DNA of 63,222 bases, filler included, from Octopus bimaculoides (taxonomy: Eukaryota): assembly GCF_001194135.2 (NCBI RefSeq). It is 3 parts of 3 records of this genome, joined end to end, with 100 filler letters (N's around TTAATTAATTAA, not from the genome) between each part and the next. Parts side by side here need not be neighbours in the genome. Positions count along the whole stretch, not along the records: positions 1 to 28,426 come from NC_069007.1; positions 28,527 to 55,696 come from NC_068984.1; positions 55,797 to 63,222 come from NC_068985.1. The stretch is one strand, 5' to 3'. A model generated the notes under the pieces. That model had not been told where the DNA came from. It worked only from the letters and a program-made list of their open reading frames with translations, and ran no database searches. Below, piece by piece: positions 3,906 through 61,524 of this stretch (its first letter is position 1; each line of letters opens with the position of its first letter). Both the position numbers and the translations under genes were made by a program.

Positions 3906-5040
3906 TTAAGTTTTAACATCGTCTCCTTCGAAATAGTCACCTTGCACAGCAAAGCTGTGCTGAAAATTGAGATTGAGCGAGCTTTTGCCCTTTTGCTTGA
4001 CGTGTGGTTTCCGTCCACGCTGAGCCTGCTTTGGGCCACCTGCGTTACCGTTTGACAGACGTACCGCCCCAGTCAAACTCCAGCATTCCTGCCACTTTTG
4101 GAATCCAGCCTGGAAGTCATTTTTCATAAGCAAGTCAAAGACCTTCTGTGATTCACTCTGGGTCTCGACAACAGTGTTAAAACGGTGACCTTCAAGCTGC
4201 ATTTTCATCTTGGGGGAAGAGATAGAAGCCTACAGGTGTTTAAATCTAGTGAATAGGGTGGGTGCAGAATTGATACCATGTTGTTTTTGGCAAGAAGCTC
4301 TGAGTGCGGAGAGCTCAGTGACAGGATGCATTGTCGTTGTGAAGACTTCAATTTTTTGTGCTCCGCAGATTCAGTCACTTTCACTGAATGTCCTCCTTTA
4401 ATAGCAGAGACTCCAGCTAAGAAGATTTGAAGAAGGAATTGTAATTCCGAAATATCATCGGACTATAGATAACCAAATTACAACAGGTATATAGTCCATT
4501 TTTTGTTCTATAGTGCATTGTTATACCATTCTAAACTTTTTATTCTTTACAAACAATACACAATGCTTCAAGCGAACTACAATACTCTCTTATCTCCTTC
4601 AAACGTTTTAAAACATCACAGTCAAACTCTCAACTGATGGTCTGTCCTGAGGGATGAATTCTTGATGCACAATACCCCATTTCCTGGGGTGACACTCATT
4701 GCAGGTCTTCCAAATCACAGGGATGTTATTCTGCTTTTGAAGCACCTGTGCTACTTGAAACATTGTGTATGACCCATTGCCTCATGGCTGTAAGCTTGCT
4801 GAAGCATGCTCAATGTCTTTGTAGCAGACTTCCCAAGTTTAATCCAAAATTTTACATTGGCTCTTTGTTCTTGTCCATGACAAAATCACGGTCTACAACA
4901 TACACATGATCACGAAAACACAAATTTCCCAACTTGCAAAGTAAACACAGCGATGTCACCTGGCATACAGCCTCGTGAAGGTCACTGCTAGCTCTCACTG
5001 TACACGCAACCATCTGCTGCCATCTGTTGGAGCACTACAG
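3906..5040 (-). mobile_element. Decayed, internally deleted mariner (DD34D-type) transposon
   Basis: Minus-strand translations: N-term EQRANVKFWIKLGKSATKTLSMLQQAY (~4870-4780), GIVHQEFIPQ (~4670), LHNDNASCH, HPPYSLDLTPVGFYLFPKMK (~4270-4200), C-term FQKWQECW..AVQGDYFEGD; stops and frameshifts present. Confidence 0.9.
3960..4081 (-). rRNA. 28S: 28S (LSU) rRNA pseudogene fragment, domain V including the P-loop (H80)
   Basis: Minus strand GGAGTTTGACTGGGGCGGTACGTCTGTCAAACGGTAACGCAGGTG...CAAAAGGGCAAAAGCTCGCTCAATCTCAATTTTCAG matches the conserved eukaryotic LSU segment GGAGTTTGACTGGGGCGGTACA-CTGTCAAAC...AAGGGCAAAAGCTCGCTTGATCTTGATTTTCAG. Confidence 0.95.
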
Positions 5041-5766
5041 AACAAACGTCTCCCAGCAATGGTGATAGAATCAATGGCTCAAGATTTCTGCTTGTTAGCC
5101 ACATCAGCAGCAAATATTCACGTTACTTCGTGTCAAGGAAACATCAGCTGCTGAGATACTTTCTTCTTAAGGTTCTTATTAGTTTGGTTACCTCACTGAA
5201 AACTGGGTTGTGTGGATTCACTTGTACCACATTTGTTGTTTCGTTTACTAGAGAGGATGTTTATAATGTTTATGAGGTCTTCCTCGGAGATTCATGAAGT
5301 CCATACACTTCCTGTCCACTTCAGAAATCCCTGAAGGAATGTCTGCAAGTAAAGCATCTGCATTGGGATATGGTGTTGGTATGTAAGCATATAATGATGC
5401 AGGGTATAGTTGAGTGGTGTAGTGTATCTTGGAGTACAAAGATGTGACATCAGGTATACTTGGGGTATAATAATCTATAAAATAACATAGGATGCTGGGG
5501 CATGACATGGATTCTATAGGGGTACGATGATGTTGGGCAGTGATTCTTAACCTATTTTTTGTTTTTGTAGCACCCCTTTTTTAAGTATTTGTTATACCTA
5601 GCACCCACCTAAGTGGTGAGTGAAGCATCGTGACTAAACCAACTTAAAATGGATGATAGTTTATAGATTTTACTCAAAAAATGGATTATAGAAATACTGG
5701 TTAAAGAAGTAATGGTTATATTGTGAGCTGGAGTAAATTCCTGCTATATCTCTAGCAGTCAGTTGT

Positions 5767-5815
5767 TCACCACTGAAGATGGGAACAAATAACCCGAAAC
5801 CTTTCGGTTTAGTGA
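5767..5815 (+). ncRNA. Minimal type I hammerhead ribozyme motif
   Basis: TCACCA-CTGAAGA-T-GGG/aacaaataa/CCC-GAAAC-CTTTCG-GTT^TAGTGA; helix I 5/6 bp, helix II 3 bp, helix III 3 bp. Confidence 0.8.
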
Positions 5816-6123
5816 TCTCATCATCTGCTAGACAATAGTAAGGGTTTGCTCCCCTGCTTGCAATATATACATGGTGCAGACTGCACTGATAACCAGCTGG
5901 CTTGGGATTAAACCTCTGGTTGGGGTTAAACAGTAGTAACATCAAACAGCCATATTGATGTGGTGACAAACATTACTCCTCAGTATAGCTACTACTTTCA
6001 TCTCTTATTGAGATTTTTCTAACTAGTTACTTTGCCTGTTGTAAGACCAGTGACCGATGGTCACTTATTTTTCTACATATAGCAAGCTGAAGCTAATCCC
6101 TACTATTTCTAACAGTTGAGTGT

Positions 6124-6172
6124 TTATGACTGAAGATGGGCACAAACAATCAGAAACCATTTGGTCTCGTGA
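6124..6172 (+). ncRNA. Minimal type I hammerhead motif (helix II decayed)
   Basis: TTATGA-CTGAAGA-T-GGG/cacaaacaa/TCA-GAAAC-CATTTG-GTC^TCGTGA; helix I 6 bp with wobbles and different sequence from copy 1. Confidence 0.7.
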
Positions 6173-7041
6173 TCCCATCATTTGCTGGAAGACAGTAGGG
6201 GTTTGCTCCCTTGCTTGCAATATCTACAGGGTGCAGGTTGCACCAGTAACTAGCTGGCAGAGGCTCAGCCTGGGGTTAAACAATAGTAACATCAAATGAC
6301 CATATTGACATAGTGACAAACATTACTCCTCAGTATAGTTACTACTTTTGTCTTTTATAGAGATTCTTCTAACTAGTTACTTCGCTTGTTGGATTATAAA
6401 AGCTTTTAACAGTGAAATAATTAAAAAATTAATAGACAGAAGTTGTAAAATTTATTTTATAGATTACAAGTTAATGACTTCTCTGTACCTGATGAGATCT
6501 AGCTAAATTTTCTATGCAGGTTGAGCAACTATGGAGGTCCTACACAGTTGCTTGATCTGCAAGAAATAGCAGCACACTTCTCTCTTGTTTTATTTTAATC
6601 ACTATTACTAGTTATATCATGCATAATATAATTACTACTAGAGGTAAAATTTAGTATGTTAATTATGCTACCTCACCCCCACCCCTCAGCGCCCTTAAAG
6701 CCTAATGCCCCCTTCAACATGCACAGCAACCTCCTTGGGGGCAGTATCACCCATGATGAAAACCTCTGATGCAGGGTATAGTAAAGTGGGGTGGGTTATA
6801 TAGGGGTTATTTATGTAGGAAGTAACAGAGTTATAACAGGAAATTATATTGAAGATGTGTAAGTGTGTATCAACAACAGTATTGTCCCAAATGTCTGTGT
6901 AACGGCAGCACTGTCCCAGATATTTTTGTGTACCAGCAGTACATCTAGGACACTGTTTTTACACTGTCCCATTTGTTTGTGGTTATAATGTAGTGCTGAA
7001 AGCTCAGGCAAATAGCAGCTGCAGGTGAAAGTCTCCCAGCA

Positions 7042-7084
7042 TTGGTAGGCCTAGGTTTCTGCTTGTTAGCTTCATCAGCAGCAA
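7042..7084 (-). ncRNA. Hammerhead-like motif in 313-bp tandem unit
   Basis: TTGCTG-CTGATGA-AGCT/aaca/AGCA-GAAAC-CTAG-GCC-TACCAA (U16.1 to C; 10.1-11.1 A-A mismatch). Confidence 0.55.
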
Positions 7085-7355
7085 AAGTAACAGAGTTATA
7101 TAACATGGGATTACATTGGAGATATGTAAGTGTGTATTGACAACAGCATTGTCCCTGATGTCTTTCTGTAACAACAGCACTGTCCCGAATGCATTTGTAA
7201 CAACAACATTGTTCCTGATTTGTTTGTATAACAGCAGTACATCTGGGTCACTATGGCTGTTTACACACACAGACATTCACTCTCCCTGATGTCTGTGGTT
7301 AATATACTGTTAAAAGCACATAAAAATAGCAGCTGCAGGTGAAGGTCTCCCAGTG

Positions 7356-7397
7356 TTGGTAGACCTAAATTTCTGCTGTTAGCTTCATCAGCAGCAA
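7356..7397 (-). ncRNA. Hammerhead-like motif in 313-bp tandem unit
   Basis: TTGCTG-CTGATGA-AGCT/aac/AGCA-GAAAT-TTAG-GTC^TACCAA. Confidence 0.55.
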
Positions 7398-8112
7398 AAG
7401 TAACAGAGTTATAACATGAGAGAGATTACATTGGAAATATGTGTGTATCAACAGCAGCATTGTCTCTTGTGTCTTTGTGTTGCAGCAGCACTCTCCCAGA
7501 TTTGTTTGCGTAACAACAGCACATCGGGGACAGTTCTGCTCTTTATACACACACACAGACATTCACAGACTCAGATGTCTGTGGTTATAAAATTAGTGGC
7601 CCCTTCCTAGCTTTAGGAGTGGCACTCCATTATGGGCCCCACCTGAACTTTATAAAAGATTGTTAGTTGGGTGCGTTGGGGAGCTGAAGTATTTCTTGGC
7701 CCAGAAAGGAAAGACCAGTGTCTTTGATGTAGTTTTTACAATATCAAAGATGACTGCTGACCAAAAGAGAAATCCTCAATGATGACAAGGCCAGGCATTT
7801 AAAGTAATCAAGAGGTCTCAAGGTTAAATGCTGTTCATGTTTAAGGGTCCAATGTGCAATAATGTTTTCTTCATAGGAGTTGTACTGGATTTATAAAAGT
7901 TTGGTAGTGTCATAGCTAGAACATTGATGATCACATGTCTGTTTGAATAATAAATGGCCAAGGGTTAAACAGTGACAAAAACCACTCATCAAAGACAAAT
8001 GCACACTACATATATATTCACAAAAACATACATGCACTTTGGTGTGTGTACGTTTATATATATGCACGTATGTATGTCTGTCTGTATGTATGTATGTAGG
8101 TATGCTTTTATT

Positions 8113-8387
8113 CTTTTATTTGTTTCTGTCATTTGACCGCAGCCATGCTGGAGCACCGCCTTTAGTCGAACAAATCGACTCCAGGTCTTATTCTTTGTAA
8201 GCCTAGTACTTATTCTATCAGGCTCTTTTGCTGCACCGCTAGGTTATGTGCAAGCTTGCACTAAGAATAAGGACAAAGTAAAAATTACTACCTGCCTTTG
8301 TAACAAGTTGATGCAGGTAGTTTATCCTGTCCCCCCTCCAGCTTTAAGTTCAGGCAATTAAAAAAACCGCATTAATTATGGGCTGAC

Positions 8388-8440
<53 letters not shown>

Positions 8441-8645
8441 TTGTCTCCCACCACCACTTGGCAACTAGTGTTGGTGTGTTTACATCCTTGTAACTTAGCG
8501 GTTCAGCAAAAGAGACCAATAGAATAAATTCCAGGCTTTAAAAGGAAAAAAAGTACTGGTGTTGATTCATTCAACTAAAAATTCTTTGAGGTGTGCCCCA
8601 GCATGGCTGCAGTCTAATGACTGAAACAAGTAAAAGATAAAAAGA
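8113..8645. mobile_element. Two tail halves of dominant SINE in inverted orientation (8113-8250 minus; 8430-8645 plus)
   Basis: CATGCTGGAGCACCGCC...AAGCCTAGTACTTATTCTATC and its reverse complement. Confidence 0.8.
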
Positions 8646-9934
8646 TTTGTGTGTGTGTGTGTGAATCAAATTGTTGTCTTCAACTGTAAATGTATGTATG
8701 TAGGTACATGTGCGTGTGAATGTCTTTGTGTTAGTGAAAAGTTAAAGCACAATAGTATGCCTGTTATAAGTACAACCATCTGACCAAACTATAAAAACAC
8801 ACACACACACACACACACACTGACAACAAGATTCCTCCACGCAACTTTTATCTATCAAATATTCCATTCACAAAGCTTTGGTCAAACATCCAGTAGAACT
8901 CCACCGAAAAAGGGTGCTGCACTTGCAGCTGCTGCTGCTGCTATTAGCTGCCATATAGTTGAATCTGACACAGAACCACATGGTTGGGGGTCAGACTGCT
9001 TAACCACATGTAGCTGCACCTGCAAACCTCAAATTACATTACCCAACTATGAAGAACTGAATGCTGTGTGTATGCATATGTTTAGCATCTATATGTGTAT
9101 ACATGTGTGTGAGTGTGGTTAACCAAAAGAATTATTACAATTTTGTTTTTTCAAAGTAAAACCATCGCATCATAACTCACACCCACATCATAACACACCC
9201 ATAATCTAAAATAACACTTTAAAATAAAATGAAAGGAAAAATAAACAAGTCAGATGAAAATACTTAATGAAGACAAAAACTTCAAAACAGGCTGCTTATA
9301 ATTATAGTAACTTCATTCAGGTCACCCCCTCACCATTCTTTTCCTTCCTCCTTTCTCCTCCTATATGTTAAACATTTTGTGGAACATTCTAGAATACAAA
9401 CAGCATTGTAGAGTTTTTCTGTTTCAATATATTCATTTTCTTTCTCTGCTTATGTTCTCTAATTTTAGAACTTTTGTTGTCTGTGTAATGGCTGGTAGAG
9501 AGGTTATTATTATTATTATTATTATTACTTGTTTTCTTTGTATGTAACAACTGTTAATCACTCAATTATTTGAGTTTAGTTTTTCACTTCTATCAAGACA
9601 CTAAATATGTCAGCACTTAACCACAGTTTTGGAGTTTGGATTTTGTTTTGCTTTTTTAATATTTTCTTTTACTAATGGCTGATATCTTTGATCTATTTAA
9701 AATGAGACTTGGACAACCTTTTGGGGGGAAACAAGTCACATGGGACATAGCACATAGTCAGGTGGGCTGCTCTACTTAAAAAATTCAGGGTAATTTGTCA
9801 TTGGGTGTGCCATTCAGAAAGTCTTGTGCATCAGTTTTCCCATGGTAAGTTTAATCTCTGTTTATTGTATAAGCATCCTTTGGCAAAAGATGATGTGAGT
9901 TCAAATCCTGCTGAGATCCAACTTTTTATCTTTG

Positions 9935-10135
9935 TGTTTCAGTCATTGGAATTTGGCCATGCTGGGGCCATACCTTGAACAAATTGGCCTCAGTACTTAT
10001 TTCTTTTAAGGTTGATTCTTATTCTACCAGTCTCTTATACTGAACTGCTAAGTACAGGAACATATACAAACCAACACCAGCTGTCTTGCAGTGGTGGGTG
10101 ATGAACACAGACACACAGATGTGTGTGTCTGTGTA
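9935..10135 (-). mobile_element. Old copy of dominant SINE, tail/body
   Basis: GTTTCAGTCATTGGAATTTGGCCATGCTGGGGC...AAACCAACACCAGCTGTC. Confidence 0.65.
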
Positions 10136-10642
10136 AATATATATGCATCATCAGGTTGGATCAAATTGACTTGTAAATACCACCTTTAGTTGAATAAATA
10201 TACTGGGTCCTGAAGTACATCTGGTTAAATATTCAGGTTTGCATACAGAGAATTTAACCCTTACAAGTATTTAGTGCCTAGGGACTGGCCCAAAGCATAC
10301 GTTGTATTGGTCACACGGTGTTTGGTATGCTCCAGGATGTCCGACAGGTCAAGAATCCCTTTTGGTGTATTATAAGCTAATAAATAGATAACAAACCATG
10401 AATGAATGTCAATTCATTACAGCTGTTTCTAATGCATTTTTTAATAGATCAATGAGTACGTTACATCATAGCAAAAAACTGTTTTCATCAGATGATACAC
10501 AGAATTTCAAACAATAGAAGAACAATCCATGAACACAGTAGAAACACTGCTATGATGTAATGTAGTCATTTGTCTATTAAAAAATGTGTTAGAAACAGCT
10601 GTAATGAACTAACATTCATCCATCGTTTGTTATTTACTTGTT

Positions 10643-10710
<68 letters not shown>

Positions 10711-11082
10711 CATGGTCTGATCATTAAGTATCCAGACTGTTGCCATAGTAACAAAGCTAAAGCATGCAGAGTAATGCTGCTTGGCACAGATTGACCTTGA
10801 ACTCTGCTGTGCATATGCACTAAGTTTTAACGTTCTAGCTCACTTCCATTGTTTACAGCAGTGCTTCGAAGGAAGGTGTGTAGTATGTGATTGTCACATT
10901 GACCATACTACACACCCTCCTTCCAAGCACTGCTGTAAACCGTGGAAGTGAGAGCTAGAATGTTAAAACTTAGTGCATATGCACAGCAGAGTTCAAGGTC
11001 AATCTGTGCCAAGCAGCTTCACTCTGCATGCTTTAGCTTCGTTACTGTGGCAACAGTCCGGATACTTATTGATCAGACCTCA
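10711..11082. mobile_element. Fully palindromic mariner-type MITE (~370 bp hairpin)
   Basis: GGTCTGATCATTAAGTATCCAGACTGTTGCC... vs ...GGCAACAGTCCGGATACTTATTGATCAGACC; arms pair almost to the centre at ~10895; inserted in TA/CA tract. Confidence 0.85.
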
Positions 11083-11299
11083 CACGCACACACACACACA
11101 CACACATAAAACAAGTGATAAAAGGGATTAATAAATCCAGACAGATATCTCAAAAGCATTTAGTGTTAAGCAAACTTAGTTATATTCATCAAACAATCAG
11201 ATACCAATAAATTTAAGTAGAAGGTAATTCCTCATGTATGACAAGCAGATCAAAATATTGCTTCAAAGAATTTCAAGAAATGTGGACTATATGACAATA

Positions 11300-13854: not shown

Positions 13855-13912
<58 letters not shown>

Positions 13913-13919
<7 letters not shown>

Positions 13920-14089
13920 AGGCAAGGAAGAAAATGGAGAAGAGATTCAATTGACAAACATCAGTATGATTTATTTATTATAATAATAGGAATAAACATT
14001 TATTTATTTATTTCTAAGATTATAATAAATGGATCTTACTGTTGTTTGTCAATTGAATCCCTGTTCCATTTTCTTTCTTGCCTTATATA
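13913..14089. repeat. Palindromic MITE-like element, ~50-bp arms
   Basis: TATAAGGCAAGGAAGAAAATGGAAGAGATTCAATTGACAAACATCAGTA vs TACTGTTGTTTGTCAATTGAATCCCTGTTCCATTTTCTTTCTTGCCTTATA. Confidence 0.8.
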
Positions 14090-14279
14090 AATTCTGGATA
14101 AACTTTTGCTTACCTCCACTTGTACCTATTATTCAATTATACTATTGCTTTGCAACAGTAAGCATTTGGATATAAATATGTATCCCTCCAGTAGTATATT
14201 AGATATTTATTATCCCTTAGATGGTTGTCTAACCGCTAACTCATATATACTTATATATATATATCATCATCATCATCAT

Positions 14280-14328
<49 letters not shown>

Positions 14329-14330
<2 letters not shown>

Positions 14331-15376: not shown

Positions 15377-15408
<32 letters not shown>

Positions 15409-15411
<3 letters not shown>

Positions 15412-15620: not shown

Positions 15621-15624
<4 letters not shown>
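15409..15624. mobile_element. Mariner-type MITE
   Basis: TIRs AGGGTGTGCTGAAAAGTTCCTG and CAGGAACTTTTCAGCAACCCCT. Confidence 0.85.
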
Positions 15625-17421: not shown

Positions 17422-17640
17422 GAAACAGATGAAGGTTGGTGACAGGAAGAGCATCTTGCTGTAGAAAATCTCTCTCAATGGATTTCATTTGACTCATGAA
17501 AGCATGAGAAATTAGTAAAATGACAATGATGATAATATATATATATATAATGTACTGTTCTGTGACGGTAAGATCAACAAAAAAAGTACTTGATCTAGTG
17601 AGAGATAACTGTCATTTAATAGACACAATTCATGTTTTTA

Positions 17641-17696
17641 TGTACTAGTAATAATTTCATATGTTGAGAAATACCTCAAACATATCATCAGACACA
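17641..17696 (-). ncRNA. Decayed type I hammerhead (left arm of inverted pair)
   Basis: TGTGT-CTGATGA-TATGTTTGAG..CTCAACATAT-GAAAT-TATTA-CTA-GTACA. Confidence 0.55.
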
Positions 17697-17812
17697 AACC
17701 ACATATCCTTTCAGTGTCAATAAAATAAGTACCAGTTGAGCACTGGGGTGGAGGTGGGGGTCCCAAACTTGCTGAATAAAGTGTGTGTGTGTGTGTGTTA
17801 TGAAAGGTGGTT

Positions 17813-17872
17813 TGTGCCTGATGAATATGTTTGAGGAGGTATTTCTCAGCATATAAAACTATTAGTAGCACA
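17813..17872 (+). ncRNA. Type I hammerhead with G12>A (right arm of inverted pair)
   Basis: TGTGC-CTGATGA-ATATG..CATAT-AAAAC-TATTA-GTA^GCACA; helix I and helix II each 5 perfect bp. Confidence 0.7.
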
Positions 17873-17897
17873 TAAAAACGTGTATTGTGCCTATTAA

Positions 17898-22280: not shown

Positions 22281-23147
22281 ACACAAGAAAGTCAGTTACT
22301 TGCAATAAGGTGTATATTACGAAGAAAGAGGAACACATAACAATATCACCCAGATAATGATAGTAAAAATGTCACCCACACAAAAGAACTTGTTCTAAAA
22401 GTCTGATCTAAAAGTCTCACACAAACTTAAGCACCGTTAATTTATTAGTAGTAGCAACCTAGTTAGTAGTCGCAACAACCTGTCGGAGTAAACCAACAAG
22501 GAGTGACTAGACATTAACAAAAGATCTAACTACCCAGAAGACAATAAATCTTTGTAAAATGACATATATGAAACGCTTATGCACAGACACACACATCACA
22601 CATGTTCATATAATAATATCAGATGTTTATAAGAGCTGATTGTATTCTGGATGGTTGGAGCTTTTGTTAATATAGAATGGCCTTTATGTTGGGTTTCCTG
22701 ATCACACCACACACACACACACACATCTCCATATGCATGTGTGTATAATACATGAGAGCATACACACATGAATGCATATATATAAATATATATATATGCA
22801 TATATATTGAGAGGTAATATTTATGCCCACTTAAACATGAATGATCTGTTACAACAAATTATACTGCAGTAGCTAACACGAGAGGAACTCTCATATTGGC
22901 TTTCGGTGCAAAATGCACTCTTGTTTAAATTGCTAGCGGGGAGATAAACCTCTGCAACCTCCAACGCTGAGACCACCACATCACGTGTTTTCGACCTTCT
23001 TTGGTTTCATCAATGATGGACACTCAGCTGTTTCTTCTAACAGAACGTTGACATTAAGTAGGGATAAATATTATCTCTCGGTACTTATACTATCTCTGTC
23101 ACTAATATATATAAATACATACATACATATAGTAAAAGAGTAGAGTA

Positions 23148-23326
23148 ATATTCTGTTGTGTCTGGGGAGTCATTTTCTTTTTGTGCCTTATAATTTAACA
23201 CACTCACTGGTAAAATTTCCACTTATTCCTTATTAAAAATAAGGAATAAGTGGAAATTTTACTGGTGAGTGTGTTAAATTATAAGGCACAAAAAGAAAAT
23301 TACTCTCCCCAGACACAACAGAATAT
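23148..23326. repeat. Near-perfect ~87-bp-arm palindrome with 3-nt loop
   Basis: ATATTCTGTTGTGTCTGGGGAG...CCACTTATTCCTTATT-AAA-AATAAGGAATAAGTGG...CTCCCCAGACACAACAGAATAT. Confidence 0.95.
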
Positions 23327-27130: not shown

Positions 27131-27221
27131 CTTTATGTGTGTGTGTATATATATATATATAATTATAATTGAAGAAATTAGAGTCAAGAAGAAAGAGTAC
27201 GGTTGGACATTTATTTATTAT

Positions 27222-27325
27222 TCACTACAATTATTTCAACGCATCATAGTTCTCCAAGAATACAGGTGTTTGATTATGCAATTGTTTGTTTGCATAATGA
27301 GATCTAGTTGTGTTTCCTCAGGCGA
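27222..27325 (-). ncRNA. Type I hammerhead-like motif with long helix II insert
   Basis: TCGC-CTGAGGA-AACACA..~70 nt..TGCGTT-GAAAT-AATT-GTA^GTGA. Confidence 0.6.
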
Positions 27326-27484
27326 TATATGAGTGTTGTCTCTGTTAGTTTAAACTCATCAACTTCAATGATCTCGCAGCACACAACATAGGTTTATCAG
27401 CCACTACTAAATTCAAATCACAATGAACAGAGAAGATGGCCTTGAAGTCGACGACCTTAAACTAATGGAGACAACACTTGTATA

Positions 27485-27588
27485 TCACCTGAGGAAACAC
27501 AGCTAGATCTCATTATGCAAACAAACAGTTGCATAATCAAATACCTGTATTCTTTGAGAACTACACTGTGTCAAAGCAACTGTAGTGA
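27485..27588 (+). ncRNA. Decayed type I hammerhead-like motif with long helix II insert
   Basis: TCAC-CTGAGGA-AACACAG..CTGTGTC-AAAGC-AACT-GTA^GTGA. Confidence 0.5.
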
Positions 27589-28029
27589 ATAATAAATAAA
27601 TATCCAGCCATACTCCTTCTTCTTGACTCCAATTTCTTCAATTTTATATTCACACACAATGAATACCCAAATTTAAACTTGGAAGTTTAAAACTACTGAT
27701 AGTACTGGGTAATTCTGAAGGTGGACAAGTTTTGTACTCTACCACATTCCTAATGGAATATAATATAACTACATATATATATGTGTGTGTGTGTGTGTGT
27801 GTAGTTTAAGAAGACTCTACCAACAGTCTACTACTGTCATACCACTCCCGTCTTTTTCTTTCTCTTCTTTTCCTACACCCTCTTCTTCTTCACCATCTCC
27901 TTCCTCAGCTACTGCTGCGTAAACAATCAAAATCCAGAACCAACATCCCTCATATTAAATATTTCTTCAGATCTGCTACTACCTACCCATCAAGCCTTCA
28001 TAAAAGTAAAAGAGAGAGAGAGAGAGAAA

Positions 28030-28562: not shown

Positions 28563-28610
28563 AGAAGAAGAATAAATGGAGCAAAACGCGTATGATCAAT
28601 AAGTTCCTTT

Positions 28611-28700
28611 AATTCCTACATATGTTTCAAAATTTATGTGCACTCTACTCCAAAGAAGTAAGAGGTGCTGGAAATGCACATAAATTCATCGTCAGGGAAC
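28611..28700 (-). ncRNA. Type I hammerhead with 13-bp helix II and palindromic helix III
   Basis: GTTCC-CTGACGA-T-GAATTTATGTGCA..TGCACATAAATTTT-GAAAC-ATAT-GTA^GGAAT. Confidence 0.75.
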
Positions 28701-29851
28701 CAACTTACAAAAGCAAAACATGCGCTAAATGCTAGGGTTGCGTACTAGTTATAACATTCTATAGCTAAGTAAATGACAGAAACCCTAACGGTCATTTACT
28801 TATATCATATGTGTTTGAGTGTGTATATGTGTATATGCATGTGTGAATGTTTGTGTGGTGCTGGTGAGTGTTATATTTCACGCGTATAAAATCAAGATAT
28901 GTACGAATATAAACGCAAATACATTTATATACATATATACACAGACATATTCGTACAGTGTTGATCATGGCATGAAAATTTCATGAAATTACTTGTTATA
29001 TAGAATTATTCAATGTAACTATCAATAGTGCACTGCCAGATTCGCATCTTTTTTATTAAACATTATGAAAGGCAGTAAGTAACCGTAGACTATATACTCT
29101 TAAACGGTAACTTTTGTTATACAAACACATACACACACATAAACACACACTACCGTAAAAATACACACACACTCCCCCCAATATATATACACTTACTAAC
29201 ATATGTGNNNNNNNNNNNNNNNNNNNNNNNNNNNNNNNNNNNNNNNNNNNNNNNNNNNNNNNNNNNNNNNNNNNNNNNNNNNNNNNNNNNNNNNNNNNNN
29301 NNNNNNNNNNNNNNNNNNNNNNNNNNNNNNNNNNNNNNNNNNNNNNNNNNNNNNNNNNNNNNNNNNNNNNNNNNNNNNNNNNNNNNNNNNNNNNNNNNNN
29401 NNNNNNNNNNNNNNNNNNNNNNNNNNNNNNNNNNNNNNNNNNNNNNNNNNNNNNNNNNNNNNNNNNNNNNNNNNNNNNNNNNNNNNNNNNNNNNNNNNNN
29501 NNNNNNNNNNNNNNNNNNNNNNNNNNNNNNNNNNNNNNNNNNNNNNNNNNNNNNNNNNNNNNNNNNNNNNNNNNNNNNNNNNNNNNNNNNNNNNNNNNNN
29601 NNNNNNNNNNNNNNNNNNNNNNNNNNNNNNNNNNNNNNNNNNNNNNNNNNNNNNNNNNNNNNNNNNNNNNNNNNNNNNNNNNNNNNNNNNNNNNNNNNNN
29701 NNNNNNNNNNNNNNNNNNNNNNNNNNNNNNNNNNNNNNNNNNNNNNNNNNNNNNNNNNNNNNNNNNNNNNNNNNNNNNNNNNNNNNNNNNNNNNNNNNNN
29801 NNNNNNNNNNNNNNNNNNNNNNNNNNNNNNNNNNNNNNNNNNNNNNNNNNN

Positions 29852-36780: not shown

Positions 36781-39192
36781 GTGGTAACATTACTTAGAGT
36801 TAAAAGCTAAATGCCTTGACCAAAGACACAATGCTGCAATGCTGTCATATTAAACCGGCAGCCATAGAATGTCACCGTAGATGTTGAGATCATTCTCTCT
36901 TGATTGTAAATGTTTTAATTTAATGGTATTCCTGAGTCACAACCAAGTAGTTTAGTATGTATGATCCATATGTCATGTGAAGTAAATGTGTGATGCAAAT
37001 GTCAAATTTGACTTAGTTGGCGCGATAATATTGAGCGTTAATGACATAAAAACAGACACAATGGAAATATGTAGCCACAGGTAATTTCAGATAGACCTGA
37101 CATATGATCAATATTTCCCCAGGCATGGGCATGAACACTTTTAACTCTGGATGACATTAGCATAAGGAATATGATCTGAGTTGTTTAATTGCTGAATTTT
37201 TCAGACCAAGTAAACGCACGTAGCATCAATACAGTGAAACTGACAACGTAAATATATTCATATTACAATGAATATATAAAGAAATAAATATTTTCTAAAA
37301 GCATTTATTGGATGTCTGAAAATAGAACAAAACACTTTGATAGATACTGACTCTAAATAATGCTTTAAAAAAATTTGAAATATGTCATTTTTTTATCCTC
37401 GATACTCAAAATTTTCTCTGTATCACTTGTATCAAGACATCCCCCATATCCCAACAGCATCACGTGAATTCCCAGCTATGTACAACAACATAGGTATATA
37501 GAAATGCAAGTCATTACCAGACTTTAAGAAAGTATAACCCTCGTATCATTATTTACCGACTAAGCATCTTTGAGATGCGAGGATTAGCTCACGGCTGAAA
37601 ATATAGAGGAAATTATGTAAATTTCCTGTCAACTTGCATTTGTAGAAAGTTTTGCCAATTTTATGTAAATTGCTGATTTGGGACTCAAGCTAGTCAACAA
37701 GAATGTCATGAGGATCTTCATTTTGCTGCGCGTGATGCGCTTCCAGCTTCTAATTCTACGCTTCTCCTAACTATTTCAATCTACTTATGAACGCATTTAT
37801 TGTGTTTCGTTTTATTTCTATAATAATTTACAATATATGCAATATAAAAGAACTTACTGAGAAGCTCTTCTGTATCTTCTATGTTTTACATCTTTACTTA
37901 CAACCTACAGGTATGGAGAAATGATCACAAAATTATATAAGTATGTTTTGGTACATAAGTAATTTATAAACATTTAAATATAAATCTATGCAAATACATA
38001 TTTATATGTATGATGACTGTTGTCCACATAATAAAAGTCACAAAACATTGATACCGAATGTTTAGATGAAGAACTGGACACCTCTCTCCGGCACAAATAT
38101 TCTGTTCCCGAGCAGCATGTATAGGAAAATCCAACCACAACCAATTCCTTTTTATTTCCTCTGAATACATGGCAGATTTCTCGATACATTCCATCTGATA
38201 ATCACGAAGAAAATTATTTTTTTATTGATATTTATCCTTCATCGTCTTCGGTTTATTTTCACTGCCATAACTGGTTACAACAGTAAAACAAGCTTATTTA
38301 TTTGTAATGAGTCTTCGTTTTATAAATTAAACAATGTTTTTTCGTAGAGTTCGGGTAAGATATTTTTCATGCGCTATCCACTTCTCGCAACTTTACTTAA
38401 CATGCCGTATACTTTTACTTTTAATATCACTGTTATATCATGTTTATTTATTCTTACGATCACCGATAAACGCTAGTAATTTTTGCAAGCAAGGCCAGAG
38501 GCTACATTCCTCTCATCACATCTGTATAGGATCAAGGAAGCAGAGAATTCGCTTGCACAAATGGAGGCACATTTTTCAGCGAGCAATATGTGCTCAGAAT
38601 TGTATGAAATGAATTTGTTGATATATGTTCCTCTGCTAGCCTCAATTGGTGAATTAAAATGTTATATTAAAGGTCCTTTTGGTACTATTTCGTATATTGA
38701 AGTAAAACGGAGAATAGTAAAGCATGTGCAATTCGCTTGAAATTTTAGGTGAATAAAGAGAGATAAGTAACCTCCGCAACTATATGCATGAGAATGCATA
38801 CATAAAACATACAAATCTGCACATACATACATAAATACATACATACATACATACATACATACATACATACACAAATACTCTATTGCTGATGTTGAAATTC
38901 AGATGAAGGAGTCTTGGATCTAGGTGAGGAAACGGGACTTTCTCTATTGGCAAAAAATCTTGAAATAAACTGAATAATGACATACGTATATATCAGAGTA
39001 AGCACATACATGTGAAACGAGGTGGAAAAAAACAATACTCGAATGCCGAAGATTGAGTAATATGCCTTATTTATAAAGCAGCAAAGACACCACGAAAGCT
39101 GCTACCGTTCGTTGGGACGTTCTCTGCCCGACGAAAAGGAACGTAAAACTTTGAGTAACAGTTTTTGTAATTTTTACAGAATCTTTACTATA

Positions 39193-54300: not shown

Positions 54301-54859
54301 NNNNNNNNNNNNNNNNNNNNNNNNNNNNNNNNNNNNNNNNNNNNNNNNNNNNNNNNNNNNNNNNNNNNNNNNNNNNNNNNNNNNNNNNTATATATATATA
54401 TATGTATATGTATGTATATATGAATTTATGTACGTCATTCATATATTCATATATTTCACCCTGGGCACCACAATGTCTGTTATTTCATTTAAAGTTTTGT
54501 CCATTGATTTTTCATACATTTTGTGAACAATATTTGTGGAAATAAATATATTTCTTTATGTCATTCAACTCCTTAAAAAAACACTTTGTTTAAGGTTAGT
54601 TTGATGTAACATTAATACATCTTTGATACAATAAAAGAAGACAATTTTCTAAACGCACACTTTTCGGAATCACAGTGAAAGAATATGCTTGATTGTATGC
54701 ACTCTAGAAACCCTATATAGAATATAATACAGCCACATTGCACAATCCCTCCAAAATTACCAATTTTCAAAATAAACATATTTCCTCTTAATTAATTCAA
54801 CTTTCGCCAAAGGCCTACAAAAACTGAAACAGCGAATTAGGAACAGGGAATCGGTGTGC

Positions 54860-55610
54860 CTCCCTACGGTCAAGTCTGGCAGACTTTCGATAGACAGCCC
54901 ATAAAACTATGTCCAGACCATGCTACAACATATCAGTAACACGAGAGAGGTTGCACCACAGGGAAATGAAAGAGTAGAAAAATTTCTCAGTGCAGTCCTA
55001 AGAACCTGGTGCAACTTACTGCAGCCCAGGACACGAACTTCACAAAACTTCCAAGCATTCAACAACAATGTTCTTACGCTGTATGGGTTACGAAATCACC
55101 ATAAACCCTACGTAAGCTCTGTAATGGGGCACTCAATTTTAAGTAATTATATCCTACTTCTTCTCACAGGTGTTACTACAACACATTGAAATGTGCCCAG
55201 ATATGTGTGTGAGCACAGATGATCTTCTCAGTAGAGTCAGTATTTACAACAAGTCCAACGACCTCGCAGTTTGTGTAGTGGTTTTACGCTACCCATTTAT
55301 AGACCTAGATTTTGCTGTGAGATTGAAGAAGAGTTCCGCGAAGTCAACACGAGGGAAATGGGCCTCCTCCTTACACTAAGCTATGACCGTTACTACCTAG
55401 ACAAGCATGGCCTAAGTAGATTCTGCCTCATCAGGTTACTGAGAGGAAGACCACCCACCCTCACCTCGACAGTGAAGAAAAGCTCCGCAGAGTGCTGGAG
55501 TTCCAACCTAGGAGCCGGAGAACAACACTCAGGTGAAAAAAACATGACTGCGCATGCTGTAGGATCCAGCGTAAGAACCACCTTGAAGCACGACATAATG
55601 AAGTTTGACG
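54860..55610 (+). mobile_element. Highly decayed RTE-like LINE 3' remnant
   Basis: Fragments ERVEKF (cf. VExFxYLG), AFNNNVLTLYG (cf. IFNSNVxSVLLYG), RLLRGRP (cf. RxRGRP) in the expected order across frames. Confidence 0.45.
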
Positions 55611-55611
55611 G

Positions 55612-55696
55612 GGGTGGCGGTGGAGGTGGCGGCGGAGGTGGCGGCTGTGGCGGCGGCAGTGGTGGCGGCGGCAGTGGTGGCGGCGGCAGTGGTGGC
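55612..55696. repeat. (GGC/GGT/AGT) trinucleotide repeat running into gap
   Basis: Direct reading. Confidence 0.9.
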
Positions 55697-55796
55697 NNNN
55701 NNNNNNNNNNNNNNNNNNNNNNNNNNNNNNNNNNNNNNNNTTAATTAATTAANNNNNNNNNNNNNNNNNNNNNNNNNNNNNNNNNNNNNNNNNNNN

Positions 55797-56293
55797 TGTA
55801 CGATGTGTGTGACTGTGAGAGAGAGTTAGAAAGAGAGAGAGAGAGAGAGAGACTATACGCTTGTATGTGTAAGATGTGTGTGAGAGAAAGAGAGAGAGAG
55901 ATAGAGAGAGAGAAAGAGAGAGAGACTATACGCTTGTATGTGTAAGATGTGTGTGAGAGAAAGAGAGAGAGAGAGAGAATGAGAGAGGGAGAGCAATTCT
56001 TTGTGCGATATGTGTGAGTGACAGTGAGAGAGTGGCACTGAGAGAAGGAGAGAGAGAGAGCAAGCTTGTATGTGTGAGGTGTGTGTGACAGATACAGAGA
56101 GAGTGAGAGAGAGAGAGAGAGAAAGAGATTGAGAGGGTGAGAGTGCGTGCCTGTATGTGTGAGGTGTGTGCGTGTGAGAGAAAGAGAGAGAGAGAAAGCG
56201 TGTACGTGTAAATTGTGAGTGTGAGAGGGAGAAGAAGAGAGTGCGCGCCTGAACGTGTGAGGTGTGTGTGCTTGTGTGTGTGTGTGAGAGAGG

Positions 56294-56337
<44 letters not shown>

Positions 56338-56430
56338 TAGAGATAAGGAGAGAAAGAGACATAAGGAGAGAAAGAGACAGACAAACAGAAACAGATTTTG
56401 GGCATCATATTCTCTGTGTGTGTGAGTGTG
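55797..56430. repeat. Compound minisatellite of (AG)n + (TG)n blocks, ~60-75 bp unit
   Basis: GACTATACGCTTGTATGTGTAAGATGTGTGTGAGAGAAAG repeated at ~55852 and ~55925, degenerate thereafter. Confidence 0.85.
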
Positions 56431-57204
56431 AGTATATATNNNNNNNNNNNNNNNNNNNNNNNNNNNNNNNNNNNNNNNNNNNNNNNNNNNNNNNNNNNNN
56501 NNNNNNNNNNNNNNNNNNNNNNNNNNNNNNNNNNNNNNNNNNNNNNNNNNNNNNNNNNNNNNNNNNNNNNNNNNNNNNNNNNNNNNNNNNNNNNNNNNNN
56601 NNNNNNNNNNNNNNNNNNNNNNNNNNNNNNNNNNNNNNNNNNNNNNNNNNNNNNNNNNNNNNNNNNNNNNNNNNNNNNNNNNNNNNNNNNNNNNNNNNNN
56701 NNNNNNNNNNNNNNNNNNNNNNNNNNNNNNNNNNNNNNNNNNNNNNNNNNNNNNNNNNNNNNNNNNNNNNNNNNNNNNNNNNNNNNNNNNNNNNNNNNNN
56801 NNNNNNNNNNNNNNNNNNNNNNNNNNNNNNNNNNNNNNNNNNNNNNNNNNNNNNNNNNNNNNNNNNNNNNNNNNNNNNNNNNNNNNNNNNNNNNNNNNNN
56901 NNNNNNNNNNNNNNNNNNNNNNNNNNNNNNNNNNNNNNNNNNNNNNNNNNNNNNNNNNNNNNNNNNNNNNNNNNNNNNNNNNNNNNNNNNNNNNNNNNNN
57001 NNNNNNNNNNNNNNNNNNNNNNNNNNNNNNNNNNNNNNNNNNNNNNNNNNNNNNNNNNNNNNNNNNNNNNNNNNNNNNNNNNNNNNNNNNNNNNNNNNNN
57101 NNNNNNNNNNNNNNNNNNNNNNNNNNNNNNNNNNNNNNNNNNNNNNNNNNNNNNNNNNNNNNNNNNNNNNNNNNNNNNNNNNNNNNNNNNNNNNNNNNNN
57201 NNGG

Positions 57205-57465
57205 GGACATAAACACACCAGCATCGGTTGTCAAGCGATGTTGGGGGGAAAAATACACACATACAAACATATACACACACATACATATATATATACATAT
57301 ATACGACGGGCTTCTTTCAGTTTCCGTCTACCAAATCCACTCACAAGGCTTTGGTCGGCCCGAGGCTATAGTAGAAGACACTTGCCCAAGATGCCACGCA
57401 GTGGGACTGAACCCGGGACCATGTGGTTGGTAAGCTAGCTACTTACCACACAGCCACTCCTACGC
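57205..57465 (-). mobile_element. Young copy of dominant SINE
   Basis: Near-consensus; further fragments at 57875-57940 (-), 58405-58555 (+), 62990-63135 (+). Confidence 0.9.
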
Positions 57466-58068
57466 CTATATGTATATATATATATGTATATATATGTATA
57501 TATGTATATGTATATATATGGGTGTGTGTATGTGTGTACATATTTCTGAATATCGTATATGTGTATATCTATATATGGATGCATATCCCTGGATGCACAC
57601 AGAAAAACACACACGCTCACACACACACACGCACACGCACATACACACACACACACACACTCATACACGACCACATAAACAGTCACATACATACCCACAC
57701 TTAAATACCAATGTGGATAGAGAGGGAGAAAGGGAGAGAAGGAGAACAAATGAGAGAGAGAGAGAGAGGGGAGAGCGGGACATACCTGACTAAGTAATAA
57801 TCGATAGGCAATTATGTGTGTGTGGGGGGGATTTATGTGTGTACATCTATGTGTATTTCATTCTTTCATTCTTTTATTCGTCTCAGGCATTTGACTGCGG
57901 CCATGCTGGAACACCGCTTTTAGTCGAACAAATTGACCCCAGAAGATTCGATGTTTGCAAGATTCAATAATATAAAACATACAGTTCTATATTAAGAGAT
58001 GCGGAATTATGTGCATTATTTACATTATTTACATTTGACGGATATTTGTCCTCATCTTGTTTGTTGTT

Positions 58069-58114
58069 AACACAACGTTTCGGCTGATACACCCTCCAGC
58101 TTTCTTCAGGTGTC
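58069..58114 (-). ncRNA. Minimal type I hammerhead (left arm of palindrome)
   Basis: GACAC-CTGAAGA-A-AGCTG..CAGCC-GAAAC-GTT^GTGTT (one helix II mismatch). Confidence 0.7.
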
Positions 58115-58165
58115 TTCGGGAAATTTCGAAACTGGTGTCTCATTCCAGGTTCGAAATTTCCCCAA

Positions 58166-58211
58166 GACACCTGAAGAAGGCTGGAGGGTTTATCAGCCGA
58201 AACGTTGTGTT
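58166..58211 (+). ncRNA. Minimal type I hammerhead, intact core, zero-loop palindromic helix III
   Basis: GACAC-CTGAAGA-A-GGCTG/gagggtttat/CAGCC-GAAAC-GTT^GTGTT. Confidence 0.8.
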
Positions 58212-58817
58212 ATTGAATGTAAATAATGAATATAAAATGTTTTAAATGATTATGTAAATACATTAATTTAAAACAATTAGGTTCATTTTCAGCAACAAAT
58301 TTTCCTATACACACACACACATATTCGTAGAGAAAGAGAGAGAAGTGAGAAAGAGGGAAAGGGGTTGGAGAGAGAGTGAGAAAGCGGGGAAGAGAGATCG
58401 AGGCGCAACCGTGGTTGTGTTGTAAGAAGCTTGCTTCATAATCACATGGTTCTGGGTCCAGTCACACTGCATGGCACGTTGGACAAGTGCCTTCTACTAT
58501 AACTTGTGAGTGGGTTTGGTAGACGGAAACAGAAAGAAGCCCGTCGTATATGTATATATTTTTCGCTGCCTTAATAATAACAATAATAATAATAAAGAAA
58601 CAAGAAGAGAGCGAGTGTAATCGAATGAGCAATATATCGACACTTCGTGTCTTTCATCTCGATCTGCTTCATTATTGTTTCTTTACTTTCTGGAGGAGTA
58701 ACATCAATTCTCAAATATTACCAAAATGAAGTAGACTGAGATGATTATTTTGAACTTGTGAAAGACACACTTGCGGATTTATTCAAGAATGGCGATTGGC
58801 TGGAAAAAAAAGGTTTG

Positions 58818-59027
58818 ATATATAATTATATAATAAAGGATAAAATCACTAATGATTTTAATAGGAGGCCAGCGCGAAAATAAAAACCTTATAAGGAAAT
58901 TTTACAAATATTATAATAATTTTATACATAATTGTAATAAAGGATTGTTATATAAAATTATAACCAGGGATTATTTTCGCGCTGATAATATCATTAATGA
59001 TTTTATCCTTTATTATATAATTAATAT
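58818..59027. repeat. Palindromic MITE-like element
   Basis: TAATTATATAATAAAGGATAAAATCACTAATGAT..CAGCGCGAAAATAA vs TTATTTTCGCGCTG..ATCATTAATGATTTTATCCTTTATTATATAATTA. Confidence 0.85.
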
Positions 59028-59816
59028 AGCAAAACATTTCACTCCTGATCAAATTTGCATTCATTGCGGTAATATTTTGATGTATAACACATGGTTGAAC
59101 AGAAAGATTGGAATTCTACTTTACTGTATATTTTTGCAGGTATATATATAGCCTGTATGGTTTGGCTAAGTCAAAATGGTTTTTTGTATTCTACCTTCCC
59201 ACTTGGAGTGTTTAAATGTAGTTACAATAAAATGTCCTTCTACTGAAATGAAATTTCAATAAATTTTCTGTATATTTGTGCAGCTGAACATTGCTCTGCA
59301 TTTTACATTTAATGTAATGATCACATTGCTTAAATAAATGGAGTCGCATGAAACGATCGTACTGCATTAACCTTCAATATCCTTGTTGCTTATTTTCATT
59401 TTTATCACCTTATTTTGGAATTGATTGGATAATACCATACTTAATTCTGGTGCCTAAACTTAAGTACCATATTCACCTTGAATCTAAATTTTATATATAT
59501 ATATATATATACATACACACATTGTTGTACCAAGTCGGTGTTCGTATGCGTACGTGTAAGTACCTGTAAATTTATACTGTGGAATAACAGTACTGAAGAT
59601 AGCAGTAGGTATAATTTTTTACCTTAAGCTTGAAACGTGATCTTGTACACGTTTAACCAAACGTTTAATTCATTATCTTTCTTTTGCTCGACTACAAACT
59701 GTGTCTTTGGAGTTTTTGAAGGTGGTGTTGACGTCATTTGGCGTCTATTTTCAGCGCGTGGAGAGGCATAATGCCAATCCCTTATTATGATTGTGTATAT
59801 AATTATTATGATATGT

Positions 59817-59851
<35 letters not shown>

Positions 59852-60219
59852 TCTAAATGTAATTAGAAGCTAATCACATATGTATTAGCACATATAAATT
59901 TATATATCTTGGTAAATAAATTTACTTTACTTAGAGTATAGAAAATACAGAATACTATAGAAAGAAGGCATAGATTTTTAACTCGGCAGCGGTTTCTGGG
60001 AGCTTGAAAATTAAGTAATAGTTGTAATGCTCATAATTTGCAAATGGGATGTGCGATAGATCATGGTTATGGAACGCGGAGGTGGATGCATAGAAATATC
60101 ATCGTAATAGCGTCTTTCTTCGTTAGGAGGGTAAGATTGGCTTGTATGTATGCATGTATATTTTTTTCATTTTATTTTCATTTTATCTAGTTTCAGCTCA
60201 TGAGCTGTGGTCATGCTGG

Positions 60220-60259
<40 letters not shown>

Positions 60260-60300
60260 GTATTAATAAAATAGATGGAACGTGTAATAGATTTTATTGG

Positions 60301-60342
60301 ATACAACACATGTTTCAACACGTTTTGGGTCTCTTCGGGTAC
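60301..60342 (-). ncRNA. Decayed minimal hammerhead (U4>C)
   Basis: GTAC-CCGAAGA-GAC/ccaaaacgt/GTT-GAAAC-ATGT-GTT^GTAT. Confidence 0.5.
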
Positions 60343-61524
60343 ATCACTAAAAAGTCTCACTAGAGATTTCCTGAGTCGGCTTACGTACCGCTATATGCCC
60401 ATCAAATTCGAAAATGAGTAAAAACAGAGAAAAATTATTGAAACGCATTGAAAAAATTCAAATATGAACGTGAGAATTATATGTTCTAGTTTAGAGAAAA
60501 TAACGCAATGAGCCTTCGCTATTGTAACTGTTAAGAGAAAGAAAAGGAAGTAGAAGCTGAAAGGAAGATACTACTTAGACGAAAATTTTTGGGGGTTCGT
60601 GTTTAGTCGCACATATACATACACAGATACATATATCATACGCACATATACATACGCGCTCACATACGCACATCCAAGTATATGGGCATATACAAACAAA
60701 TAGATACAGGCGCATACGCACACGTATAGACGAATACATACATATATATGTATAGGAACTCATACATGCAGGTACACACGTGTACATATACGTCTGTATC
60801 TTGCTTTACGTACGAATATATGCACATATTTATCTATGCTACGTATATTTACACTCGTTCTGGTCTAACGACCCTCCATGTATGTTTTCGTTCAGTTTCG
60901 TTGTAAGACTCCACTGTCCTGTTTTTGTTCCTAACTGTGACCCTCCATAAATCCCAAATTTTATTTTGGCACTTATGGGAGCAAATATCTTCGAAAACTC
61001 ATATTGTCGTTCAATGCTCGAAATGAGGAGTAGATAGTCAGCCTACAACTGATGAAGGGTCGTTCTTTGTGTTACTTGTCCTGTTTTCCATTTNNNNNNN
61101 NNNNNNNNNNNNNNNNNNNNNNNNNNNNNNNNNNNNNNNNNNNNNNNNNNNNNNNNNNNNNNNNNNNNNNNNNNNNNNNNNNNNNNNNNNNNNNNNNNNN
61201 NNNNNNNNNNNNNNNNNNNNNNNNNNNNNNNNNNNNNNNNNNNNNNNNNNNNNNNNNNNNNNNNNNATATATATTATTTATATATATATATATACATACA
61301 TATATATGTGTGTGTATGTGTGTTTGTATATACACACATATATGTATATATAGAGAGATTTTTATATATACATACATATTTATATGTGTTTTATGTCTGT
61401 GTGTGTGTAATATGTCTGGTGAACAATGAAAAGCAATCACAAAATGAATTCATCTAAATTTATTTGTTCACGAGATGACTATGGATCTTTCATTATATAA
61501 TCAATATCGTATAATCAACGGAAG

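Follow-up and report, generated by a model that had tools for sequence, protein, structure and literature searches.

Type I hammerhead motifs in probable Penelope-like ends and a likely tandem retrozyme of Octopus bimaculoides

Hammerhead-like motifs recur along a stretch of Octopus bimaculoides DNA (63,222 nucleotides, filler included; hereafter, the window). Are they real hammerheads, and if so, what kind of element carries them? A preliminary description of the sequence listed 11 near-complete and five decayed motifs and assigned them to the minimal type I hammerheads of Penelope-like elements (PLEs) and non-LTR retrozymes, thought to work as dimers, a class assignment that our analysis supports. 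The type I motifs are real, and self-cutting is predicted for them. Very probably, their carriers are about 10 unrelated repeats, with seven intact motif cores among them, most being 5'-truncated Penelope-like ends and one a 357-base tandem retrozyme, with self-cutting as a prediction.

Hammerhead motifs in the window

The motifs display the type I layout: C3-U4-G5-A6-N7-G8-A9, G12-A13-A14-A15.1, U16.1-H17, and helices I–III, with helix I open. A strict descriptor (exact CTGANGA and GAAA, helix II of at least 3 bp, helix III of at least 2 bp, NUH, and helix I of at least 4/5) finds seven intact cores in the window, with C3 at 5773+, 6130+, 7391-, 27321-, 28695-, 58109-, and 58171+. As controls, di- and trinucleotide shuffles, both local and global, were made in three sets of 200; the set means are 0.13–0.17 strict matches, with a maximum of 2. 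None of the 600 reaches seven, and the reversed and complemented window sequences hold no strict match. The motif density in the window thus exceeds that of shuffled sequence. Allowing one core mismatch yields 14 matches scoring at least 9 versus 1.7 ± 1.2 (maximum 6) in 60 shuffles, and four scoring at least 12 versus 0.05; at any score, each shuffle gives 6.5 matches. A scan for the core plus a 4-bp helix III and helix I returns eight matches versus 0.55 expected, one of the eight (10489) being an artefact of fold-back J, described below. The one-mismatch matches 10489+, 20408+, 28861+, and 52696+ were left uncounted because they score at shuffle level. The suggested check against Rfam models went the other way: five scans of the window returned no hammerhead match, one of them judged on the best 150 of its 179 rows.

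Seven of the 11 sites first called near-complete pass the strict descriptor. The other four are damaged partners of paired copies: 7042 has U16.1>C, 17641 a mismatched helix III, 17813 G12>A, and 27485 a broken GAAA, so that 4/11 carry core or helix damage. Among the sites called decayed, 60301 stands, with one core change. Three others lack support and were returned by none of our scans, and the last runs into an assembly gap:

4427..4475, plus strand: C3>U, no helix I; not supported
22975..23015, minus strand: C3>U, G at the cleavage position; chance level
39124..39165, plus strand: two core changes, no helix II; not supported
61049..61093, plus strand: CTGATGA, 38 nt without GAAA, then the gap

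Read as a type II/III hammerhead, 61049 shows no helix III by eye.

The palindromic helix III proposed for these motifs is present as written for ACATATGT and AACGTT, and for ACCTAGGT and ACAATTGT emerges only when damaged paired copies are combined. Isolated motifs fold with z between -5.19 and +1.97 (3/8 below -2), and their lowest-energy state is often not the hammerhead. Comparison of paired copies, at 2–3 copies per family, gives core differences of 4/43 (9%) and flank differences of 111/678 (16%; Fisher P=0.28); cores decay at about the flank rate. As first described, the families are diverse, with differing flanks and helix II: across nine families (F left out), 2/36 pairs reached 2/200 shuffles in one of two segments compared, which is chance level.

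Fold-backs, single elements, and tandem repeats

The motifs fall into about 10 insertions: five outward-facing fold-backs (C, D, F, J, K), three single elements (E, G, H), and two tandems (A, B). With 10 elements in 57.8 kb, five of them with an intact core, there is roughly one every 6 kb. Fold-backs J and K and element H were missed initially.

5718..6041, plus strand: family A copy 1, C3 at 5773, predicted cut after 5809
6077..6391, plus strand: family A copy 2, C3 at 6130, predicted cut after 6166
5082..5114, minus strand: decayed relic, akin to family B in its core and helix II region
6820..7587, minus strand: family B tandem, ~314-nt unit, cores 7391 (strict pass) and 7078 (U16.1>C)
10379..10642: fold-back J, left arm with full core, C3 10491 (minus)
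17616..17897: fold-back C, outward motifs 17691 (minus; helix III damaged) and 17818 (plus; G12>A)
27164..27646: fold-back D, cores 27321 (minus; strict pass) and 27489 (plus; broken GAAA)
58068..58212: fold-back F, two minimal motifs, C3 58109 (minus) and 58171 (plus), helix III AACGTT
62661..62935: fold-back K, left arm with CTGATGA at 62793 (minus)
28609..28703, minus strand: single element E, the best motif, with helix I 8/8, long helix II, and palindromic helix III ACATATGT
59278..59367, plus strand: single element H, G8>C core, helix I 6/6
60299..60344, minus strand: single element G (the earlier 60301), U4>C core, 4-bp helix III

In eight of the 10 elements, all of them short stumps or fold-backs, no strand bears more than one motif. 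In fold-back C, neither arm is intact. The arms of D span 205 nt and are 86% complementary, with a 77-nt helix II region and (TA)n ending the left arm. Folding of this one pair predicts an arm–arm hairpin in which the helices of the sense motif have probability 0.0. Those of F span 68 nt and are 94% complementary. J has palindromic helix III ACAGCTGT in its left arm, and its right arm, 5'-truncated within helix II, ends at (TA)n. K possesses a ~97-nt helix II region, a helix I out of register, and a 5'-truncated right arm. In both J and K, the second arm starts inside helix II. Lesions of paired copies lie at different positions and complement one another. Since the inverted pairs face outward, a transcript would contain a single sense motif; the five pairs are footprints left by insertion, not partners in a dimer. 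Two further fold-backs, 10714-11079 and 23157-23315, contain no core and were excluded.

Element E, with (TA)n 63 nt downstream, is predicted to homodimerize through an 8-bp intermolecular helix III (ddG -7.6 kcal/mol). Element H has palindromic helix III ACGATCGT and (TA)n 130 nt downstream; for element G, the distance is 55 nt. In D, E, H, J, and K, the helix II region measures 55–97 nt. Overall, (TA)≥5 occurs within 150 nt downstream of 7/10 elements versus 1.7 expected (P=2.6e-4, in a test designed after the Hydra-clade table of PMC8557442 was known), the preference being absent in A, B, and F.

Family A is likely a non-LTR retrozyme, with predicted self-cutting: it is multi-copy and non-coding, and consists of head-to-tail units within 150–400 nt, each with one type I hammerhead. 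The cut-to-cut unit, 5810-6166, is 357 nt long with 39% GC. A distal stem prolongs helix I in copy 1 (fold z -5.19), and copy 2 has a circular fold z of -2.63; in A2, helices I and II have a predicted pairing probability of 0.0. Summed contig depth is 1848-2869 over the body of copy 1 versus ~16 at single-copy sequence, and other contigs pass from unit end to unit start (6059>5717, 6066>5748). The family A pattern had no match in metagenome contigs. Neither the minus-strand CTGAGGA at 5983/6333, tried as a type II/III hammerhead (no helix III by eye), nor 6489, tried as a decayed family A motif (it fails to align with the family), was retained.

Family B has weak helices I and II, lacks the motif in its third copy, and lies near single-copy depth; as a circle, its unit is no more stably folded than shuffled sequence (z +0.26). 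The measurements of copy number and expression cover A and B (5000-7650). RNA reads on the two numbered 310 and 301, on both strands and from relatives, with none at or above 99% identity (0/310, 0/301). In the ~6% examined of each of two raw runs, there were no shared ends or end pile-up, and no back-joint was listed. RNA circles could have been missed because library selection for these runs is not on record.

Origin of the elements

Partial tandem copies, a 5'-truncated copy in inverted orientation, and insertion into (TA)n characterise PLEs (PMC8557442, in its available text). The window holds the first two types of arrangement in its two tandems and five outward fold-backs, and the (TA)n preference is that of the Hydra/Neptune type. 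In Hydra-clade hammerheads, according to the same source, helix III is mostly 3-4 bp long with a short loop, and helix II is preceded by an additional base. The likeness is close: a type I hammerhead near the 3' end, a short helix III with its short loop, the additional base ahead of helix II, (TA)n targets, and an inverted 5'-truncated copy, as in Penelope-13_HM. Specifically, helix III of fold-back C, ACTA-T-TAGT, is identical to that of Penelope-1_HM, and helix III of A2, ACCA-TT-TGGT, resembles that of Hydra-1_Obim, an O. bimaculoides element whose hammerhead is given in File S2 of PMC8557442 (Craig et al. 2021). Unlike Hydra-clade PLEs, the window elements have no ORF attached, and five of them (D, E, H, J, and K) possess helix II regions much longer than those of the Hydra motifs listed there. 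The available part of that supplement contains none of six window motifs searched for. Pfam models for reverse transcriptase (RT) and GIY-YIG matched in 0/148 frames scanned (of 322 candidates), as expected for truncated ends; a single weak HALZ match fell below cut-off and was rejected.

The notion is that a PLE RT/GIY-YIG endonuclease would nick AT-rich or (TA)n DNA, after which the 3' end of an RNA with a hammerhead in its pseudo-LTR would be copied. Were copying to stop early, the result would often be a second copy in inverse orientation with its own truncation point (C, D, F, J, K), or else a lone stump (E, G, H). Within the source RNAs, two motifs could pair through their short and mostly palindromic helix III to give a double hammerhead; cutting at two sites in family A RNA would set free a 357-nt unit capable of circularising. 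The genomic copies seen here would be passive and decaying, and the arm–arm hairpin of a fold-back is predicted to bury the motif.

Could all families instead be dedicated non-autonomous retrozymes, now expressed as abundant circular RNAs, and not stumps of coding PLEs? The size, tandem layout, and self-paired fold of family A fit, and no ORF adjoins any motif in the 148 of 322 frames scanned. Moreover, a preprint (10.64898/2026.07.22.740005), in the text available, argues for a derivation of animal retrozymes from PLE pLTRs, and therefore the two classes intergrade. We nevertheless judge this account improbable: the eight stumps and fold-backs argue against it, as do the low depth of family A RNA, its presence on both strands, and the missing near-identical reads and shared ends. 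The preliminary claim that every family is non-autonomous may hold for family A, which alone has a tandem layout of the 350-390-nt retrozyme kind; most copies resemble 5'-truncated ends, from which non-autonomy does not follow because autonomous PLEs leave them too.

That the copies are host-kept ribozymes processing a host transcript is very unlikely. Cores differ slightly less than flanks, and a putative RNA run has near-exact contigs over family B; against this, the core–flank gap is not significant, the damage in 4/11 of the first-listed motifs touches core or helix, and no host gene is established. Least credible of all is that the motifs are chance hairpins or MITE parts. The lack of an Rfam match, the AT-rich window, and the core-less fold-backs would suit such an origin, and the relaxed matches in every shuffle account for 4427, 22975, and 39124, for which it stands. 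For the strong motifs it is already refuted, by the 600 shuffles, by the helix III scan (its artefact notwithstanding), and by the complementing lesions of paired copies. Truncated Penelope-like ends, with one retrozyme family, remain our preferred reading.

Relation to published elements and meaning

Mussel retrozymes have units of 350-390 bp (PMC7229834; Cervera and de la Pena 2020). Like these metazoan non-LTR retrozymes, family A has a head-to-tail, non-coding, 39% GC unit with a self-paired fold. Unlike them, family B is near single-copy, and family A is known here from sequence, its cleavage and circles being predictions. The available text of PMC4209133 describes hammerheads paired on opposite strands at distances of 100-700 bp and genomes with many unrelated families, and proposes dimer cleavage. 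Fold-back F shares with those motifs the palindromic AACGTT, an extra base after A9, and a G10.1-C11.1 pair; unlike in that study, seven strict motifs in 57.8 kb is a density far above its counts (~9,000 in Xenopus, 4,000 in coelacanth). Cephalopods are not named in the available text of PMC4209133, and octopus and cephalopods are absent from what was available of the main texts of PMC7229834 and the preprint cited above (Li, Clavereau and Pollet 2026). Elsewhere among cephalopods, Octopus vulgaris has 30 recently active Penelope families (PMC13282606), and the giant squid genome paper reports 235 Rfam Hammerhead_1 matches.

The suggestion that this diversity and arrangement may be new in a cephalopod is accordingly weak, given the published Hydra-1_Obim hammerhead and opposite-strand pairs. 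Elements of these kinds have been described in many animals, their layout is in the literature, and a hammerhead has been reported in an octopus PLE; novelty may lie in their density, roughly one every 6 kb. Tentatively, and with rather more doubt than confidence, we extend this density to the genome, which would carry hammerhead PLE stumps and retrozymes at ~1/6 kb, many with a 55-97-nt helix II and invisible to Rfam.

If so, scaling to the 2.8-Gb octopus genome would give 2-5 x 10^5 copies in many families, placing octopus among the most ribozyme-dense animals, above mussel (~5,000), Xenopus (~9,000), and axolotl (up to 120,000). The fold-backs would then be a large source of double-stranded RNA. 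Should the density hold genome-wide, a simple RNA descriptor could move a sizeable share of "unknown" or MITE-like octopus repeats to the Penelope-like elements. Finally, insertion in vitro does not need cleavage (PMC11167929), and the many unrelated families would provide a natural covariation set for the role of PLE hammerheads considered there.

Hammerhead motifs and their arrangement

The window is AT-rich and abundant in microsatellites (63,222 bases, including 5,383 N). A strict type I hammerhead descriptor, requiring exact CTGANGA and GAAA, helices II, III, and I, and NUH, recovers seven motifs (core position C3 at 5773+, 6130+, 7391-, 27321-, 28695-, 58109-, and 58171+), versus a mean of 0.13-0.17 and a maximum of 2 in three sets of 200 shuffles. 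The reversed and the complemented window yield none. With one core change tolerated, 14 matches score at least 9, versus 1.7 in 60 shuffles; at any score, shuffles yield 6.5 one-change matches each, and thus weak decayed calls carry little meaning. The hammerhead motifs are real, and their density lies far above that of shuffled sequence. Rfam scans returned no hammerhead family among the 150 of 179 matches listed in one scan or in further scans.

Self-comparison of the window groups the motifs into ten insertions: two tandems, five fold-backs (inverted pairs of arms), and three singles.

Hammerhead-bearing insertions (cut site, predicted cleavage position)
5718-6391: A, tandem of copies A1 and A2, their cut sites 357 nt apart
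6820-7587: B, tandem, with a related relic at 5082-5114
10379-10642: J, fold-back, motifs facing outward
17616-17897: C, fold-back, motifs facing outward
27164-27646: D, fold-back, motifs facing outward
28695 (-): E, single
58068-58212: F, fold-back, motifs facing outward
59284 (+): H, single
60338 (-): G, single
62661-62935: K, fold-back, motifs facing outward

There are slightly more elements, and fewer intact motifs, than the preliminary description listed. Specifically, it overlooked J, K, and H. Seven of its 11 near-complete sites pass the strict descriptor, and the others (7042, 17641, 17813, and 27485) are damaged partners in pairs. Among its five decayed sites, 60301 is plausible, 61049 meets a gap, and 4427, 22975, and 39124 are unsupported. 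Its view that the families are unrelated holds: when helix II regions and 3' flanks were compared across nine families (F left out), only 2 of 36 pairs got to 2/200 shuffles, and these in a single segment.

In J and K, the second arm begins within helix II and is therefore a 5'-truncated copy. Most of the elements also have (TA)n ends. In seven of the ten, one or more cut sites are followed within 150 nt by (TA)5 or a longer run, versus 1.7 expected (P=2.6e-4), in a test designed only after the Hydra table of Penelope-like element (PLE) hammerheads in PMC8557442 had been seen; A, B, and F have no (TA)5 inside that distance.

Folding, copy number, and RNA

E is predicted to dimerise, one copy joining another via an 8-bp intermolecular helix III (ddG -7.6 kcal/mol). 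In the predicted fold of D, the two arms pair with each other, which leaves the hammerhead helices at probability 0.0. Family A regions are predicted to fold much more stably than their shuffled counterparts (z -5.19 and -2.88), and in the lowest-energy fold of both copies the core end pairs with the strand just beyond the cut site. Such pairing would keep the monomer inactive, possibly as a built-in off-switch. Both copies retain a distal stem prolonging helix I (5738-5845 and 6095-6205). Folded as circular units, A gives z -2.63 and B z +0.26, and five of eight isolated motifs do no better than z -2. Paired copies differ at 4/43 core positions versus 111/678 flank positions (P=0.28), so the genomic copies bear no clear sign of selection. 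Scanning 148 of the 322 candidate frames turned up no remnant of an RT or GIY-YIG.

Four of 24 listed sequencing runs were mapped to 5000-7650, the A/B region only. Summed DNA-contig depth, which does not equal copy number, is 1848-2869 across the body of A1 and 458-1153 across A2, and 146-215 in the hammerhead bins, all versus ~16 for single-copy sequence. Because DNA contigs from elsewhere rejoin unit end to unit start (6059>5717 and 6066>5748), the head-to-tail junction is a trait of family A, a multi-copy tandem family. Family B, at 14-37, is near single copy. About 6% of each of two raw RNA runs supplied 310 and 301 reads in this region, on both strands; none is at least 99% identical to it, starts and ends show no pile-up, and no back-joints occur among the joints listed, there being at least 94 further joints.

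Across 6826-7376 in family B, a possible RNA run has contigs with 0-1 differences at a depth of about 3, one of them lacking 7188-7194; these may be pre-mRNA or DNA. Directly after A2 lies a second multi-copy repeat (6424-6690; DNA-contig depth 261-1586), with CTGATGA at 6489, possibly a decayed hammerhead. An 18-nt motif from this repeat occurs six times in the window versus 0.06 expected, once antisense inside A2.

Other features of the window

Frame 3906-4229 (-), which we take to resemble the C-terminus of a mariner transposase, has no Pfam match and is split by a 135-nt 28S rRNA piece (3940-4074, -; RF02543, 91.7 bits). Three inverted structures lack a hammerhead or its core. The fold-back at 13911-14092 (86-nt arms, TA at both ends) has an AATAAA/CTT-rich end resembling family D, and is possibly a stump ending short of the ribozyme. 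The fold-back at 10714-11079 (128-nt arms, 95% complementary, flanked by (TA)n and (CA)n), with termini that are presumably mariner-like, is likely a true MITE. The hairpin at 23157-23315 has 78-nt arms, 91% complementary. Finally, an open frame at 55235-55744 (154+ codons, a GGC repeat at its end, then a gap) has no Pfam match and could be a host exon or an element remnant.

Relation to known elements

All elements are further members of already known kinds. As described in PMC4209133, minimal PLE hammerheads occur as many families in each genome and as pairs on opposite strands 100-700 bp apart, with weak dimer cleavage. PMC8557442 reports inverted, 5'-truncated PLE copies as well as (TA)n targets, and lists Hydra-1_Obim of Octopus bimaculoides with a hammerhead. 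Mussel retrozymes (tandem hammerhead-bearing repeats) span 350-390 bp (PMC7229834), and a 2026 preprint (10.64898/2026.07.22.740005), whose main text makes no mention of cephalopods, traces retrozymes to PLE pseudo-LTRs. In the window, a PLE RT/endonuclease probably inserted truncated 3' ends, often bringing a second, inverted copy. Source RNAs, with cleavage as predicted, would be cut as dimers, and family A may release a putative 357-nt circle. In vitro, PLE insertion proceeds without need for cleavage (PMC11167929).

Our search of the literature found no survey of octopus hammerheads, though subscription papers or supplements may contain one. In O. vulgaris, 30 Penelope families are counted as recently active (PMC13282606); in the passages covered, neither this paper nor PMC8967140 mentions ribozymes. 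PMC6962438 gives 235 Hammerhead_1 matches in giant squid.

Beyond these known kinds, density is the one noteworthy point. The window, a biased sample flagged for this very feature, holds 10 elements in 57,839 called bases, which, scaled to a 2.8-Gb genome (derived from the O. vulgaris figure in PMC13282606), would correspond to 2-5 x 10^5 elements.
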